Shown piece by piece: positions 14,655 to 18,614 of a stretch of 64,000 nt of DNA (positions are counted from its first letter, which is position 1; each line of letters opens with the position of its first letter). Where the stretch lies: contig JBGSRK010000010.1 in the NCBI GenBank assembly GCA_041737595.1, positions 96,001-160,000 of the forward strand. The letters are read 5' to 3'. The notes under the pieces were generated by a model. That model made no database searches. It had not been told where the DNA came from and worked only from the letters and a program-made list of their open reading frames with translations. The position numbers and the translations under genes are program-made. This stretch comes from Patescibacteria group bacterium. GTDB taxonomy: Bacteria > Patescibacteriota > CPR2 > UBA1875.

Positions 14655-15932
14655 TTGATGAAGAATATAACTGACAAAACGGAGTTGAAGTACTGTCTTT
14701 ACGCTCGAAAATCATCTGAATCTGACGAAAGACAGGCGATGTCAATTGATTCTCAAATCAAAGAAATGTCCGATTTGGCTAATAAAGAAGGCATTAAGAT
14801 TGTTAAGGTGGTCCAGGAGAGCTATTCTGCCAAACAATCAGGCCAAAGGCCAGTGTTCATGCAGTTGCTCTCTGATATTAGGTCGGGAGTTGTTAATGGG
14901 TTACTCACCTGGGCACCAGATAGGCTTTCGAGAAACGCTGGAGACTTGGGGTCACTCGTAGATTTAATGGATGATAAAAAACTAGTCCAGATTCGAACCT
15001 ATTCCCAAAGTTTTACCAATACGCCGAGTGAAAAGTTTATGCTGATGATCCTATGTTCTCAGGCCAAGCTGGAGAATGATAATAAGGGCGAAAATGTCAA
15101 AAGAGGCATCCGAGCCAAATGTGAAATGGGTTGGCGACCATGTATGCCGCCGATTGGTTATTACAACCGGGCTATGGCTGGTATCAAAGACGTGGTAGTT
15201 GATCCCGATCGGGGTCCATTTATATCCGAGATGTTCGAACATGCGGCTAAAGGTGAAAGCGGTCGCACGATTAAGGTCTGGCTAGACGGAATTGGAGCAA
15301 CTAGCCGAAAGGGCAAACCAATAACCTTGAGCTTGGTATATCTAATGCTCAAAAATCCGTTCTATTATGGAACTTTCGAGTATCCCATCGGTAGTGGCGC
15401 TTGGTACAAAGGTTCACATGAACCTTTGATAACCAAAGAATTGTTTGATAAGGCACAAAAACAACTAAATTGTACCCAAAAAGCCAAATGGGGATCAAAA
15501 GAATTCCCGTTTCGAAGATTCCTAACCTGTTACTCTTGCGGTTCCACTATAGTTGGTGAAGAAAAGTTCAAAACTCTCAAAAATGGCAAAAAGAACCGAC
15601 ATATTTATTATCACTGCTCACGACAGGTTGATAACAATTGCAAAGAAATGTATCTATCAGAAACACAGCTAGTTGAAGCACTGCTGCTCATCTCTGACAA
15701 GCTTACAATCGATAAAGTTTCTGTGGAGCCAGGGCTAACCAAAGCTATTCAAAAGTTTCGCTCGATGCTAGAAACCGTGAATCCCAAAAAGAAATATACC
15801 AAAAATGAAATTATCAGAACCTATACAAAATACGTATTAGAAAAAGGGACAGATTTCGAGAAAACCCAGTTGGCCAGAAACCTTAACATCAAACTGGCTG
15901 TTCACAATCGAGAAATAGTAGTTACAGGATAA
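14655..15932 (+). CDS. Large serine recombinase (resolvase + recombinase + Zn ribbon)
   Basis: 'YARKSS' catalytic Ser, 'SAK..G.RP.F', 'DRLSRN', 'NPFY.G', 'H.PLIT.ELF', C..CG and Y.C zinc ribbon. Confidence 0.92.
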   Translation: MMKNITDKTELKYCLYARKSSESDERQAMSIDSQIKEMSDLANKEGIKIVKVVQESYSAKQSGQRPVFMQLLSDIRSGVVNGLLTWAPDRLSRNAGDLGSLVDLMDDKKLVQIRTYSQSFTNTPSEKFMLMILCSQAKLENDNKGENVKRGIRAKCEMGWRPCMPPIGYYNRAMAGIKDVVVDPDRGPFISEMFEHAAKGESGRTIKVWLDGIGATSRKGKPITLSLVYLMLKNPFYYGTFEYPIGSGAWYKGSHEPLITKELFDKAQKQLNCTQKAKWGSKEFPFRRFLTCYSCGSTIVGEEKFKTLKNGKKNRHIYYHCSRQVDNNCKEMYLSETQLVEALLLISDKLTIDKVSVEPGLTKAIQKFRSMLETVNPKKKYTKNEIIRTYTKYVLEKGTDFEKTQLARNLNIKLAVHNREIVVTG

Positions 15933-15937
15933 AGCAT

Positions 15938-16729
15938 CTATTTTTTGCCAAGTGCGTTTAAGAGTTTTGAAACTCCTTCTTCGGATTTCTCAGCGTTATG
16001 AGAATGGTTTAAACAGAGCTGGGTGGCTATCCTCGATAGATCCCCCGTTGGAATTAGGGCAAAAATAGTTGGGACATCCTTTTCGTGATAAAGCCCAATC
16101 CACTGCCTGACGTCTGAATCAAATTCAAAAACTATACATTCGTCGAGCGTATCATGCGCGGTAACCTCATCTTCATACTTGGTTAGTTCGAAAGTGTCTA
16201 TAATATTAGCCAATCTAACATTCAACATTTCACAAAATATTTCGGCTACGTCCAGCGCATCTTCAGCATCACTCTTTGTAACTTTTACGTAATCATGCTC
16301 AACTTTATTTCTTATTTTGTTATATTTTGATAATATCTTGGGAGCAACAAACCCTATATCTTTCAGAATTTCAAGCTTGAGGCTGAACCCCTTTTTGTCT
16401 GGATATTTCTGCTCATCAGCCTTATCTATATTAAGACTGAAGGTTTTAAAAACCAAATCGACAGAACAATGGATTGCCCTTTTTGAATTTGAAACCGAAT
16501 TAACAAGGCCTCGCAGAGTTGCTTCTGCTAAATCCTTTTTTGCAAATTTAATGTACACTTCCGGAGAACAATCGAAAGAATACGGCTCAACGTAACTGCC
16601 ACCATCGCAAATGGCAGTGACAGTAGGCCAGCTCTTAATATCCGCCGTCTTGAACAACTCTAAAATATCAACTTCTTTAAAGCGATCTGGATTTTCTCTT
16701 TGCACAGACTTAATAATTTCTAAATTCAT
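15938..16729 (-). CDS. Putative HEPN-domain protein
   Basis: Helical protein with 'RNKVEH' (Rx4H) and upstream 'KRAIH..VD'. Confidence 0.55.
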   Translation of the reverse strand: MNLEIIKSVQRENPDRFKEVDILELFKTADIKSWPTVTAICDGGSYVEPYSFDCSPEVYIKFAKKDLAEATLRGLVNSVSNSKRAIHCSVDLVFKTFSLNIDKADEQKYPDKKGFSLKLEILKDIGFVAPKILSKYNKIRNKVEHDYVKVTKSDAEDALDVAEIFCEMLNVRLANIIDTFELTKYEDEVTAHDTLDECIVFEFDSDVRQWIGLYHEKDVPTIFALIPTGDLSRIATQLCLNHSHNAEKSEEGVSKLLNALGKK

Positions 16730-16741
16730 CTTTTCCTAACA

Positions 16742-16772
16742 AAATTAGCAAACCGATTTGGCTTGCTAATTT
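16742..16772 (-). terminator. Hairpin downstream of tRNA-Asn
   Basis: AAATTAGCAA ... TTGCTAATTT inverted repeat. Confidence 0.5.
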
Positions 16773-16889
16773 CTTAGTAGTTCAAACCAGCTACTCTGGT
16801 TTTATTTCAATGCCCTAGATACACTACGGACACCTTTGGTGCTCAACTTGGCTCCCGGGGTCGGATTCGAACCGACGACCAATTGATTA

Positions 16890-17390
16890 CACTTATCCTA
16901 CTATTACTAATAGGCGTGGACTATCTCATCACCATACCTTTCGGGTTAGGTGTTGGGCGCTAAATGGTGTACTCACCTAGTCTCTGAACCTTTCCGATAT
17001 GCCGGACTTGGCTGCGGATTATCCCTTTTAGGACTTCCCGCAATTCACCCAATTTTCATTCATTCATTTCTGAATGAAGCTGCGAATGGATTTCTCTGTG
17101 GCAATTTGCACAAACTAGTATGCACTTTTCAATTTCTTTTTTCACCTTTTCCCAAGATCTTGTATTACCTGTTTCAGAAATACCAAAATTTTTATCTTGT
17201 TTATGGTGAAACTCAAGTGCTTCAATACATTTTTTATAACCACATATACTACAACAACCGCCCATATAATCAACTGCTTTCTTTCTAACCATTCTTCGGT
17301 GTTTTGAAACTGCTTTGATTATATATTCTCGACGATCTGAGTAAGTTCTTTTTTCGCTCATGTATTAATTATAACATAAGCGTTGTGATC
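16890..17390 (-). ncRNA. Group I self-splicing intron (501 nt) at anticodon position 35/36
   Basis: Exon ends in U, intron ends in G; IGS GCAG (17083-17080) pairs with exon CUGU; P AAUUGCGGGAA, Q AAUCCGCAGC, R GUUCAGAGACUA, S GAGAUAGUCC; P2 with GAAA loop; P3 UUGGGUG/CGCCCAA; P9 hairpin. Confidence 0.93.
17056..17361 (-). CDS. Intron-encoded HNH endonuclease (putative homing endonuclease)
   Basis: 'CSICGY', 'LEFHH', 'CANCHREIH'; lies between the 5' splice site and the IGS; C-terminus overlaps IGS and P2. Confidence 0.88.
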   Translation of the reverse strand: MSEKRTYSDRREYIIKAVSKHRRMVRKKAVDYMGGCCSICGYKKCIEALEFHHKQDKNFGISETGNTRSWEKVKKEIEKCILVCANCHREIHSQLHSEMNE

Positions 17391-17414
17391 ACAGTCAACT
17401 GCTCTACCGCTGAG

Positions 17415-17666
17415 CTACCCGGGATTATTTAATTGTGTTTTGAGGAATTCTCTTCCTCGGTACGACTTGAGTTGTTTTTCTCGAGCCATTGCAGCCGATC
17501 TACTTGCCGATTCTTCATTGTAGAATAGCTCCCATTGCCCGACAATTTTACCCGTATAATGGATGTTTTTATTATTATGTTCTAGAATTATTCTAGCTAA
17601 ATTATTAGTTTGACCAATATATATCTTATCTGATAATTTATTGTATAAAGCATAAACATAATACAT
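17415..17666 (-). CDS. Small GIY-YIG nuclease family protein
   Basis: 'YYVYAL', 'IYIGQTNNL', 'EHN', 'A..REKQLKS'; stop codon lies inside the tRNA 5' end. Confidence 0.88.
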   Translation of the reverse strand: MYYVYALYNKLSDKIYIGQTNNLARIILEHNNKNIHYTGKIVGQWELFYNEESASRSAAMAREKQLKSYRGREFLKTQLNNPG

Positions 17667-17727
17667 ATTTTAATTGTATCACAGTAACTGTCCGCCGACT
17701 GGCGGACTACCCGGGATTATTTAATTG
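17415..17727. repeat. 21-bp direct repeat CTACCCGGGATTATTTAATTG (17415-17435, 17707-17727) plus degenerate tRNA exon1 copy (17681-17716)
   Basis: The two 21-mers are identical; similarity to exon1 and the intron start continues to ~17674. Confidence 0.9.
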
Positions 17728-17747
17728 GATTCTTAAGATACCGGAAA

Positions 17748-17776
17748 ATTATAACAAAAAATTGTCATATTTTCAA
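17748..17776 (-). promoter_or_regulatory. Sigma70-type promoter for the tRNA-Asn locus
   Basis: TTGAAA-N17-TATAAT with extended TG, upstream of the pseudo-exon. Confidence 0.6.
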
Positions 17777-17810
17777 GAATCGATTTATAATATTAAAAAA
17801 GGAGTATTAA

Positions 17811-18614
17811 ATGAAATTAATAAAGGGTCTTGTAATATTTTTCGGTATAATCGTGGTGATAATACTTTTAGTATTGGGTTATCTAGGTTACATTAAACCA
17901 ATTGCAAATGTTTTGGGTACGAATAAGCCAGTCGATTTAGGTATAAAATATACAGATTCTGATCTTGGAAGTGTAAAGCAAAAGTTTGGAGTTGAATTAG
18001 TAGAAATTGAATCAAGCGATCCAAATAATTCAATTAGATATGAAGGCGAACAAAAAGTAGAAAAATCTTTCACAGATGAAGAAATCACCGCCATGGTAAA
18101 TTCTAAAAAATGGATTTATACACCAGTAACAAATGTTCAAATAAAAATTGGGGAAGACGGTACAATTGAATCATCTGGAACATTAATGGTAAGCAGGCTC
18201 GCAAATTACTTTAGCGCTGTTTCTGGAGCCACTGTCAGCACAGATGAAGTAAATAAAGCAGTCGGTATATTACCGAAAGAAGTTCCTTATTATATTTCAG
18301 GAACAGCAAGTGTTTCTAATGGGGATGTATCGATAGACGTAAACTCATTCTCAATCGGAAAAAAGGTTTCTTTTATAAATTTTATGTCTACTGCTTATGC
18401 AAATTCTGTTAATGCCAGTGTTTCTTCGTTTAAGGTTGGTCAATTTGCAATATCTCAATCAATAATTTCTAGCTATAAAGATCAAATAAATAGTTTTTTA
18501 ACCACTAGATTAAATAAAATATCAGGACTTAAGGCAAATTTGGTTACCTTTGAAAAGGGTGAAATGAATTTTTCTGGCACTATGCCAACCAAAAAATATA
18601 GAGTAGTTAAATAA
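17811..18614 (+). CDS. Membrane-anchored hypothetical protein
   Basis: N-terminal TM, AGGAG SD, no recognised catalytic motif. Confidence 0.75.
   Translation: MKLIKGLVIFFGIIVVIILLVLGYLGYIKPIANVLGTNKPVDLGIKYTDSDLGSVKQKFGVELVEIESSDPNNSIRYEGEQKVEKSFTDEEITAMVNSKKWIYTPVTNVQIKIGEDGTIESSGTLMVSRLANYFSAVSGATVSTDEVNKAVGILPKEVPYYISGTASVSNGDVSIDVNSFSIGKKVSFINFMSTAYANSVNASVSSFKVGQFAISQSIISSYKDQINSFLTTRLNKISGLKANLVTFEKGEMNFSGTMPTKKYRVVK

Follow-up and report, generated by a model that had tools for sequence, protein, structure and literature searches.

A small GIY-YIG nuclease gene between a hairpin-disrupted tRNA-Asn fragment and an intact tRNA-Asn gene in a patescibacterial genome

The window considered here is a stretch of 64,000 nucleotides (nt) from contig JBGSRK010000010.1 of a Patescibacteria group bacterium (assembly GCA_041737595.1; genome G000 below), and its subject is the region around the gene for tRNA-Asn. 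All features of this locus are given in minus-strand reading (Table 1). A promoter and a leader are followed by a stump of tRNA-Asn, or pseudo-exon, that is interrupted by a palindrome. Next comes an open reading frame (ORF) for a small GIY-YIG nuclease, and then an intact tRNA-Asn gene that is itself split by a group I intron. This order of stump, GIY-YIG ORF and intact split tRNA-Asn had been proposed in an original prediction made from the DNA letters, and it was confirmed. The stump together with the nuclease gene is called the cassette in what follows.

Table 1. Features of the tRNA-Asn locus, listed in minus-strand reading
Feature	Position	Strand	Remarks
Promoter TTGAAA-17-TGnTATAAT, ancestral tRNA promoter	17776-17748	-	11/12 consensus matches, TG present
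Native leader CAATTAAATAA before the pseudo-exon	17727-17717	-	Resembles the leaders CAACTTAACAA (G004) and CAACTTGATAA (G001)
Pseudo-exon part 1, TCCCGGGTAG, tRNA-Asn nt 1-10	17716-17707	-	
Palindrome TCCGCCAGTCGGCGGA in place of the D-arm	17706-17691	-	G-TCCGCC-AGTC-GGCGGA-C
Pseudo-exon part 2, CAGTTACTGT, anticodon-stem 5' strand and loop, one G absent	17690-17681	-	
Extended -10-like box TGATACAAT	17681-17673	-	6 nt upstream of ATG
GIY-YIG ORF, 83 amino acids, catalytic domain alone	17666-17415	-	Pfam PF01541
Leader copy 2, CAATTAAATAA	17435-17425	-	Codes for the C-terminal QLNN of the ORF
tRNA-Asn(GUU) exon 1	17424-17391	-	Border from intron-less contigs
Group I intron, 501 nt, in the anticodon loop	17390-16890	-	Last base G16890
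HNH-like ORF, 101 amino acids, in the P1 loop of the intron	17361-17056	-	
Presumed internal guide sequence GCAGCU, P1 3' strand	17083-17078	-	Placed by position
tRNA-Asn exon 2 with encoded CCA	16889-16849	-	

Judged against the empty allele of genomes of the same family, the stump retains tRNA nt 1-10 and 24-35, and its second part has the genome-specific A of GACTGT. As originally predicted, the D-arm has been replaced by a hairpin, whose stem comprises 7 base pairs (bp) when G17707/C17690 is included (span 17707-17690). The stop codon of the nuclease gene indeed falls inside the 5' end of the real tRNA. The ORF has no stop of its own, and its reading frame crosses the duplicated leader and the first ten bases of the real tRNA-Asn to end at TAG (17417-17415), which corresponds to tRNA nt 8-10 (the universally conserved U8-A9-G10). 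A repeat search recovered the duplication as a direct repeat of 32 nt with 84% identity (17415-17446 versus 17707-17738). The same search found no inverted repeat bracketing the cassette in the window, and with a direct repeat of 32-54 nt the locus does not resemble an insertion sequence or transposon. The split tRNA-Asn is missed by ARAGORN, whose scan of the G000 assembly reports no other tRNA-Asn, and routine annotation would list the genome as lacking this tRNA. Placed end to end, the two exons align collinearly with the 75-nt tRNA-Asn(gtt) called by ARAGORN in relatives such as L012 and L013, and the predicted product of splicing is a putative tRNA-Asn(GUU).

The original prediction allowed that the duplication might be a mis-assembly, and this concern is met by contigs from sequencing runs. 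A Logan contig of run X1 (20,108 nt), which may derive from the source sample itself, covers positions 16400-18300 and spans the duplication with 0 differences. The duplication holds in this independent contig and is therefore no artefact of the deposited assembly. Contigs of run X2 cover 16856-17638 and 17715-18300, again with 0 differences, and leave a gap at 17639-17714.

The nuclease belongs to the GIY-YIG superfamily by its match to Pfam PF01541 (score 52.2 bits, cut-off 22.6; E 7.8e-14 over residues 1-69). In an alignment of 78 relatives, Y16, G18, H30, E63 and K67 are invariant, and Y5, T20, R26, E51 and A59 are conserved in at least 90%; we take Y5, Y16, R26, H30 and E63 to be catalytic by analogy with the residues of I-TevI. 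An AlphaFold2 model (predicted local distance difference test score 92) places all 83 amino acids in one domain. Foldseek comparisons, in which E-values are weak (best 1.9e-3), rank UPF0213 protein BH0048 (1zg2) first, with chains of the Slx1 nuclease domain (TMq 0.58-0.68, 23-27% identity) and At-HIGLE near; UvrC gives TMq 0.54 and I-TevI TMq 0.50 (17% identity). Judged by this model, the protein fits a minimal Slx1/UPF0213-type (YhbQ-like) GIY-YIG domain with no auxiliary domain. It falls well short of the NCBIfam model for I-TevI-type intron and homing endonucleases, TIGR01453 (17.6 bits against a cut-off of 56.05, and residues 4-33 only). A sequence search of the PDB returned nothing meaningful (best E 0.25, to an unrelated BglG protein), and matches in the ESM Atlas were generic 'GIY-YIG nuclease family protein' clusters alone. 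Homodimer prediction gave a score of 0.00, which speaks neither for nor against a dimer. The prokaryotic Slx1-like proteins are described as the minimal, stand-alone form (Dunin-Horkawicz et al. 2006, PMC1564403).

The arrangement at tRNA-Asn is not an isolated one. Genome G000 (1.09 Mb in 143 contigs, 38.5% GC) has six small GIY-YIG genes, and the same layout is found at its tRNA-Gln(CUG) and tRNA-Glu(UUC) genes, which brings the occupied tRNA genes to 3 of about 45. At these two sites the order is tRNA nt 1-12 or 1-9, a GC-rich hairpin, 10-16 nt more of the tRNA, the ORF and the intact tRNA, and the stop codon either adjoins the tRNA or lies 15 nt inside it. Small GIY-YIG genes are present in 40 of 61 genomes of the phylum (39 of 60 relatives, plus G000), with up to 11 in one genome. 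From these genomes 117 loci with 118 GIY domains were collected, consisting of the best hit per genome, 80 further hits and two tRNA-Asn loci. An ARAGORN tRNA on the same strand starts between -40 and +120 nt from the stop codon for 39 of the 118 domains, and four further domains precede intron-split tRNA-Asn genes. At least 14 types of tRNA are occupied, including those for Asn, Gln, Glu, Ser (four anticodons), Ala, Arg, Gly, Asp, Lys, Leu, Cys, Met, Pro and Tyr. A stop codon at position -10, which uses the conserved U8-A9-G10, is frequent among the tRNA-linked loci.

Gap-tolerant alignment shows that the upstream copies begin at tRNA nt 1, span about 20-77 nt and are broken by one to three GC palindromes. 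A simpler detection of a tRNA prefix and its resumption was set aside when it missed diverged copies, and the alignment was complemented by a strict seeded test on all loci, 65 in number, that have an intact tRNA downstream and whose upstream region is clean. To pass, a locus had to show tRNA nt 1-9, with one mismatch allowed, in the 150 nt upstream, and in the next 70 nt a perfect GC-rich stem of 5 bp or more. It was passed by 39 of the 65 loci, compared with a mean of 0.6 and a maximum of 3 when seeds from other tRNA types were used. The 9-nt seed alone recurs upstream of the ORF in 47 of 65 loci against a control mean of 1.0, and the layout is therefore above chance. Several loci that fail the strict test on account of imperfect stems are clear by eye (L005, L021, L023, L028, L039).

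When the window protein was searched against one genome per species, 61 loci were recovered, and relatives with 40-59% identity occur in several phyla. Patescibacteria of many classes carry the 5' type of cassette (at Asn, Lys, Ala, Ile and Pro tRNAs). A mirrored form predominates in loci labelled Muricauda, Aliifodinibius, Ignavibacteria, Planctomycetota and Verrucomicrobiota and is also seen in L128, with Bacteroidota among the phyla. Here an intact tRNA and a short spacer precede the ORF, which is followed by a second tRNA copy beginning at about nt 3-8 and bearing palindromes in its D-loop, anticodon arm or T-loop. The two forms agree on two points: the ORF leads into a copy of the tRNA, and it is the dispensable copy that bears the palindromes. 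Short members of the family adjoin other structured-RNA genes as well: RNase P RNA (L032, L094, L112) and tmRNA (L026, L095, L131), in both cases with the ORF directly 5' of the gene, and the 3' end of 16S rRNA or the rRNA spacer (L088). In L094, L088 and L032 the ORF lies between inverted repeats whose downstream arm is the 5' end of rnpB, and the rnpB-like inverted repeat is also found in the rRNA spacer, where rnpB is absent.

Some of these loci have further features of their own. In three Planctomycetota loci (L193, L194, L197) a hairpin TCCCGAC...GTCGGGA lies within the C-terminal coding region of the ORF, and the 3' part of the tRNA, the spacer and the start of the ORF form a tandemly repeated unit. 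At L216/L218 (genome G015, contig C64, about 2150-2710 of L216), a 5' stump with three hairpins, the ORF and an intact tRNA-Ala are followed by a third, nearly full copy of tRNA-Ala with a double hairpin in its D-loop, which ARAGORN miscalls as tRNA-Ala.

A quick maximum-likelihood tree of 167 proteins places 24 Asn-linked proteins in one clade (unstarred support of 92 in the Shimodaira-Hasegawa-like approximate likelihood ratio test) beside a Lys clade (96). The proteins of L041 and L056 form another, smaller Asn group and fall near Asn-linked proteins of Planctomycetota and Verrucomicrobiota. The 29 target labels require 45 changes on the tree against 86.5 when shuffled, and none of 200 shuffles was as low, a clustering that is inflated by near-copies and kinship. 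A separate clade of 53 longer proteins (93-103 amino acids, YYVYI...W.DL) has no tRNA link. Members of this longer subfamily in G000 (L002, L003 and L004, on contigs C36, C67 and C113) have repeats on either side that are GC-rich and imperfectly palindromic, for example gtcattgcgagg...cgacgaagcaatc, an arrangement that looks like that of REP sequences (repetitive extragenic palindromes) and their RAYT genes.

Empty and filled alleles, which the original prediction had proposed to compare, both exist in relatives with the same promoter and leader. The window promoter is homologous to that before the plain tRNA-Asn of two genomes of the same family (G001, G004), the downstream flank is also common to the window and G004, and a filled locus (G019) has an upstream promoter block in common with an empty one of the same genus (G008). 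Because the promoter and leader match those of empty alleles, the stump stands at the ancestral start of the gene. The functional tRNA-Asn has been displaced about 290 bp downstream, and the duplicated leader is native sequence. Similar relations are known from the mitochondrial elements called mORFs, which are discussed below. As in those elements, the ORF has the intact gene on one side and, on the other, a displaced piece that repeats one end of that gene, and the displaced fragment is the native one, as synteny with the empty alleles of G001, G004 and G008 indicates. The mORF pattern is departed from in that the inserted gene end is not foreign and both copies share genome-specific bases. 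Among 19 Asn-lineage stumps, the stump's own tRNA scored above the mean of the others in 18, and no other scored better in 15; of the remaining four, L163 reflects a failure of parsing.

Signs of turnover are also seen. One locus (L018) has two tandem cassettes before a single tRNA-Asn, each with its own stump and palindrome and with proteins identical at 48 of 80 amino acids. Cassette arrays occur in planctomycete loci (L193), and broken or truncated ORFs in L014, L075 and L178. An extra 13-38 leader bases in the window and in G003 were considered as the 3' remnant of an older cassette, a proposal that was dropped since the leader aligns equally well as native sequence. In another stump (L150), the anticodon-stem bases CGGCTTCCTGTA mismatch the tRNA-Asn that lies 57 nt past the ORF and resemble the tRNA-Asn of L148 and L149; this might possibly reflect a foreign or replaced gene copy.

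Given the linkage of the homologues to tRNA genes and the existence of empty and filled alleles, the best reading is the one proposed originally, a minimal GIY-YIG element that targets a tRNA gene and restores it to an intact state. Put more specifically, there is a somewhat better than even chance that a selfish nuclease cassette of a homing-like kind occupies the 5' part of the tRNA-Asn gene. The copy of the leader and 5' part that follows the ORF is continuous with the rest of the gene, and an intact tRNA is thus kept. The nuclease might start recombination at tRNA genes and so spread or maintain the cassette. The route could be either homing-like gene conversion or Campbell-type integration, with a crossover within the first ~10 nt of the tRNA, and would yield the observed layout. 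A crossover past the palindrome would put the palindrome in the essential copy, and therefore only one outcome would be viable. Repeated hits would produce tandem arrays, and decay would leave broken copies. The palindrome might bar the stump from one of three roles, namely serving as a target, taking part in recombination or functioning as a tRNA.

Expression of the nuclease would depend on read-through from the tRNA promoter and, in the sublineage of the window, on a TGn -10 box. The original prediction of an extended -10 box before the nuclease gene was correct for the window, where it is present as TGATACAAT, and does not extend to the family: such a box 5-8 nt before the start codon is seen at 13 of 65 loci of the 5' type, compared with 2% of shifted control positions. 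The promoter scan passed over the box because it has no -35 element. As read from the sequence, the box would give a leaderless mRNA. At loci without it, the ORF must depend on read-through from the tRNA promoter across the stump. Cleavage by RNase P at the 5' end of the tRNA would strip the stop codon from transcripts, and less nuclease might be made as a consequence.

Several points weigh against a homing-like cassette. Cleavage, mobility and expression are all predictions from DNA sequence. The protein has no DNA-binding domain by which it might recognize a tRNA gene. The restored tRNA is the same as the empty allele of a same-genus relative (L057 versus L058), and immunity by an altered target, as in homing, is therefore not evident; tandem arrays suggest that the restored gene can be hit again. 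The substitutions shared by both copies and the native leader fit long residence with gene conversion as well as they fit mobility, and they give no sign of a foreign donor of the kind seen in the mitochondrial cases. The protein tree roughly mirrors taxonomy within the order. The TGn box, at 13 of 65 loci, is a trait of the window sublineage and not of the family as a whole. Finally, no contig of X1 or X2 joins across the cassette to reveal an empty allele, although such contigs drop rare variants.

The alternative that survives best assigns the central role to the palindromes, whose conservation includes compensatory changes. The original prediction proposed that homologues of 17415-17666 be checked for flanking tRNA duplications and for the hairpin, and both are borne out: the homologues are linked to duplicated tRNA 5' ends, and the frame TCCGNC-N4-GNCGGA is present in 22 of 27 Asn-lineage rows, the other five having other GC palindromes or being truncated. 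Rows for a covariation analysis were chosen by this frame, so that five pairs are fixed by construction and two are free. Among 16 distinct rows, pair 7-14 is C-G in 11, G-C in 4 and U-A in 1, and pair 2-19 is G-C in 8, C-G in 5 and other combinations in 3. The covariation score of 0.236 compares with 0.051 for shuffled rows, is reached in none of 500 shuffles and vanishes when partner columns are slid. These compensatory changes show that the symmetry is maintained, be it for a hairpin of RNA or DNA or for a protein site with two-fold symmetry. Two specific functions were judged unlikely. An operator with fixed spacing between hairpin and -10 box is at odds with distances that vary from 8 to 25 nt, and an intrinsic terminator in the window is at odds with the absence of a T-run after the hairpin, with 0 terminators found.

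REP sequences and RAYTs offer a precedent for such a system, as dispersed GC-rich palindromes with a small single-domain nuclease gene flanked by them. By analogy, the GIY-YIG nucleases might be trans-acting enzymes of dispersed GC-rich hairpins or double hairpins, as RAYT is for REP. The hairpins would be mobile or recognized units that prefer tRNA-like DNA and persist only in dispensable tRNA copies, and the tRNA duplication beside the nuclease gene would be a by-product or a safe haven. The hairpins do lie in the redundant copy whether that copy is upstream, as in Patescibacteria, or downstream, as in Muricauda, Planctomycetota, Verrucomicrobiota and L128, and several can accumulate in one stump (L014, L056, L144, L145). 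Copies also occur apart from the nuclease gene. TCCGCC-N2-8-GGCGGA has 6 copies in G000 against 1 in the control and forms a dispersed hairpin family, and TCAGCC-WWW-GGCTGA has 7 copies in G015 against 0 in the control, partly in plain intergenic DNA. A double hairpin of 30 nt is nearly the same (33/34 identical) in L139 (tRNA-Asp, G012) and L145 (tRNA-Ala, G015), where the neighbouring ORFs are about 65% identical. The tRNA-Val(GAC) gene of G000 (C36:10688-10880; L008, about 1400-1600) is followed by two tandem 58-nt units without an ORF, which hold two of the six TCCGCC-N2-8-GGCGGA copies. In each unit a spacer of 23 nt leads to the hairpin TCCGCCAACCGGCGGA, after which the final 19 nt of the tRNA are repeated; these units may be an ORF-less derivative of the mirrored cassette. 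The GC-rich repeats that flank the subfamily of 93-103 amino acids, the structure-specific Slx1 fold and the covarying stem pairs point in the same direction.

This palindrome-centred explanation is nevertheless rather improbable. The hairpin family of G000 is small, some of its members look like ordinary terminators, and convergence can make GC hairpins alike in AT-rich genomes. Neither a target-site duplication nor defined ends of a hairpin element were identified, and the explanation does not account for the ORF always abutting nt 1-10 of a tRNA copy. The comparison with REP and RAYT is itself incomplete, since RAYTs have the HUH Y1 fold and not GIY-YIG and have no known tRNA link, and hairpin copy numbers are low here. 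A whole-genome census of GC hairpins in G000 was uninformative, most being terminator-like and the counts being inflated by 61 high-GC contigs. These small contigs (157 kb in total, each above 50% GC), among them contig C30 with an ARAGORN 'tRNA-SeC', are probably bin contamination.

A further possibility, which is quite unlikely, is that the nuclease is a domesticated and vertically inherited host gene, serving for example in repair or structure resolution at highly transcribed tRNA genes or in RNA metabolism, with the hairpin stump as a 5' leader that regulates or stabilizes a joint nuclease-tRNA transcript. Purifying selection on catalytic residues across phyla, the co-evolution of the pseudo and real copies, and the overlap of the ORF with a tRNA with which it would be co-transcribed are all consistent with this idea. 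A link to RNA metabolism has been proposed for a single prokaryotic fusion of a Slx1-like domain with a TrmH-like tRNA methylase (PMC1564403). A host function is difficult to reconcile with the patchy distribution among close relatives (6 of 24 tRNA-Asn loci, and 3 of the ~45 tRNA genes of G000), with tandem arrays and broken copies, with occupied tRNAs that vary by genome, or with family members beside rnpB, tmRNA and rRNA genes.

The group I intron in the same tRNA gene must also be considered. Rfam RF00028 gives 94.8 bits (gathering threshold 50) over 17129-16897, exon 1 ends in CUGU, with U before the 5' splice site, and the intron ends in G16890, all as in a genuine group I intron. Its borders were set by intron-less tRNA-Asn contigs of other organisms, in which 16889 is joined to 17391, and the guide was placed by comparison with the ORF-less introns of L056 and L042, in which GCAGCC pairs with GGCUGU. 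The HNH-like ORF scores 20.7 bits with Pfam HNH, slightly below the cut-off of 21.4, and has homologues (44-63% identity) at the same intron position in five relatives, where the introns are orthologous. The intron and its HNH ORF are a second, independent mobile element in the tRNA-Asn gene. The GIY-YIG ORF, by its position upstream of exon 1 and outside the intron, is not an intron-encoded endonuclease.

The original prediction had described tandem modules of exon 1 and endonuclease that were tied to this intron, an idea that fails because the same architecture is found mostly at intron-less tRNAs. In a search with the 3' part of tRNA-Asn, 26 places were found in 23 of 31 genomes, and 24 loci were kept once two fragments at contig edges had been dropped. 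Of these, 13 are plain, 5 have only the intron, 3 only the cassette and 3 both. Occupation of at least 14 types of mostly intron-less tRNA, together with the occurrence of all four combinations, shows that the cassette is not intron-tied.

An intron-coupled origin, in which the duplication arose from an intron-bearing allele and the pseudo-exon now rivals the 5' splice site to give a product of pseudo-exon and exon 2, is accordingly very doubtful. The pseudo-exon does end in CUGU precisely where the intron is inserted in the real gene, the 8 nt that follow are similar to the beginning of the intron, and CTGTAA is read in L015 at the pseudo-exon as well as at the true junction of exon and intron. 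The resemblance to the first intron bases (GAT-ACAA versus GATCACAA) is weak, however, at 7 of 8 with a gap, and it overlaps the -10-like motif. This motif, G(G/A)TA(C/A)AAT, also follows CTGT in pseudo-exons of intron-less genes, as GGTACAAT in L013 and GATAAAAT in L041, and the proposed insertion after the intron with copied intron bases would be indistinguishable from it. On paper, the pseudo-exon could provide an alternative 5' splice site, since by analogy with L056 the same 4-bp P1 core of CUGU with GCAG (17083-17080) could form with either exon. Most relatives stand at intron-less tRNAs, where the stump ends elsewhere (nt 21-77), and the stumps of L012 and L016 continue into nt 36-38 of an uninterrupted tRNA. 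The weakest explanation, chance similarity, plain tandem duplication or mis-assembly, can draw on the shortness of the repeat and on the break of the X2 contigs between 17638 and 17715, and it is scarcely credible in view of an independent contig across the region with 0 differences, an architecture shared by dozens of genomes, where the control gives roughly 1 in 65, and compensatory changes in the hairpin.

Other genes near the locus deserve brief mention. A gene for a large serine recombinase with Resolvase, Recombinase and zinc-ribbon domains (14655-15932, plus strand) lies just downstream of tRNA-Asn, and beside it is an ORF of 263 amino acids without a family match (15938-16729, minus strand). 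Both may be part of an element integrated by way of the 3' side of this tRNA-Asn gene.

tRNA genes are classic targets of integrases and introns. Integrative elements that target them resemble the cassette in regenerating the tRNA gene from an attP copy and in leaving a partial copy at the other junction. They differ in relying on tyrosine or serine integrases, in using the 3' end of the gene, in being kilobases long and in leaving a fragment that is not disrupted by a hairpin. Another set of potential relatives is formed by the Seg proteins, which belong to the I-TevI/UvrC branch of GIY-YIG nucleases. Unlike the cassette, they have a DNA-binding C-terminal part, are encoded between genes in phage genomes and not in cellular ones, and are not known to be accompanied by a duplicated, hairpin-disrupted tRNA fragment. 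Phage T4 SegB is similar to the nuclease described here in that its GIY-YIG gene is not part of an intron and adjoins tRNA genes, in the tRNA gene cluster; its spread is attributed to cleavage of alleles without the gene (PMC2330249). No description of GIY-YIG cassettes in tRNA genes was found in the literature searched.

The closest parallel is provided by the mORFs (mobile endonuclease ORFs) of mitochondria, which are associated with a duplicated gene end in atp6 of Allomyces macrogynus and in atp6, atp9, cox2 and nad3 of Glomus (PMC3630166). There, a gene is entered by a free-standing ORF for an endonuclease, of the LAGLIDADG type or, in atp9, of the GIY-YIG type; the duplicated end keeps the gene whole while the displaced native end becomes an unused remnant, and the ORF can be in phase with the host gene without a stop of its own, all as in the cassette. 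The two differ in several ways. The host is a bacterial tRNA gene and not a mitochondrial protein gene, and in Patescibacteria it is the 5' end that is duplicated. A tRNA has no synonymous sites with which to build a cleavage-resistant copy, and the duplicated part looks native. Furthermore, the remnant of the cassette always has a GC palindrome, and the nuclease is a bare Slx1-like domain.

Two other comparisons are informative. Insertions in the rRNA genes of the Candidate Phyla Radiation, the bacterial radiation to which the window also belongs, similarly include GIY-YIG ORFs in structured-RNA genes and are neither group I nor group II introns (PMC11270868). The study deals solely with rRNA genes, the word 'tRNA' being absent from the main text consulted, and it regards GIY-YIG ORFs in these insertions as sparse and places them outside homing; in the main-text parts of that article, neither duplication of a gene end nor a hairpin is described (PMC11270868). 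The stand-alone Slx1-like/UPF0213 proteins, with BH0048 (PDB 1zg2) as the best structural match, share the minimal domain, and the portion of the family survey consulted mentions no link to tRNA genes, duplications or palindromes (PMC1564403).

A broader proposal, bold and on balance improbable, is that minimal Slx1-like GIY-YIG nucleases and short GC-rich palindromes together make up an unrecognized class of bacterial mobile elements in essential structured-RNA genes, in which the palindrome with its target-derived flanks would be the specificity element. Such an element might act as a cruciform or hairpin substrate or, in the boldest version, within an RNA transcript by which the nuclease, having no DNA-binding domain, would be directed to a tRNA gene that matches. 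Insertion sites in this class would comprise tRNA, tmRNA and RNase P RNA genes and rRNA spacers.

What sets the arrangement apart from those described in the literature searched is a widespread cassette that consists of only a nuclease domain of about 80 amino acids and that splits and rebuilds a tRNA gene. If the cassette is mobile, it would be a homing-type element that resides in an RNA gene without an intron, by duplication of one end of the gene. What is known as a mechanism of fungal mitochondria would then apply to several bacterial phyla as well. The stand-alone Slx1/UPF0213 family of bacteria, which is large and without an assigned function, gains a testable role. Similarly, its link to conserved GC palindromes may show how a nuclease without a DNA-binding domain finds its site. 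Regardless of mobility, such loci hide tRNA genes from annotation and produce tRNA-like fragments that are miscalled by gene finders.

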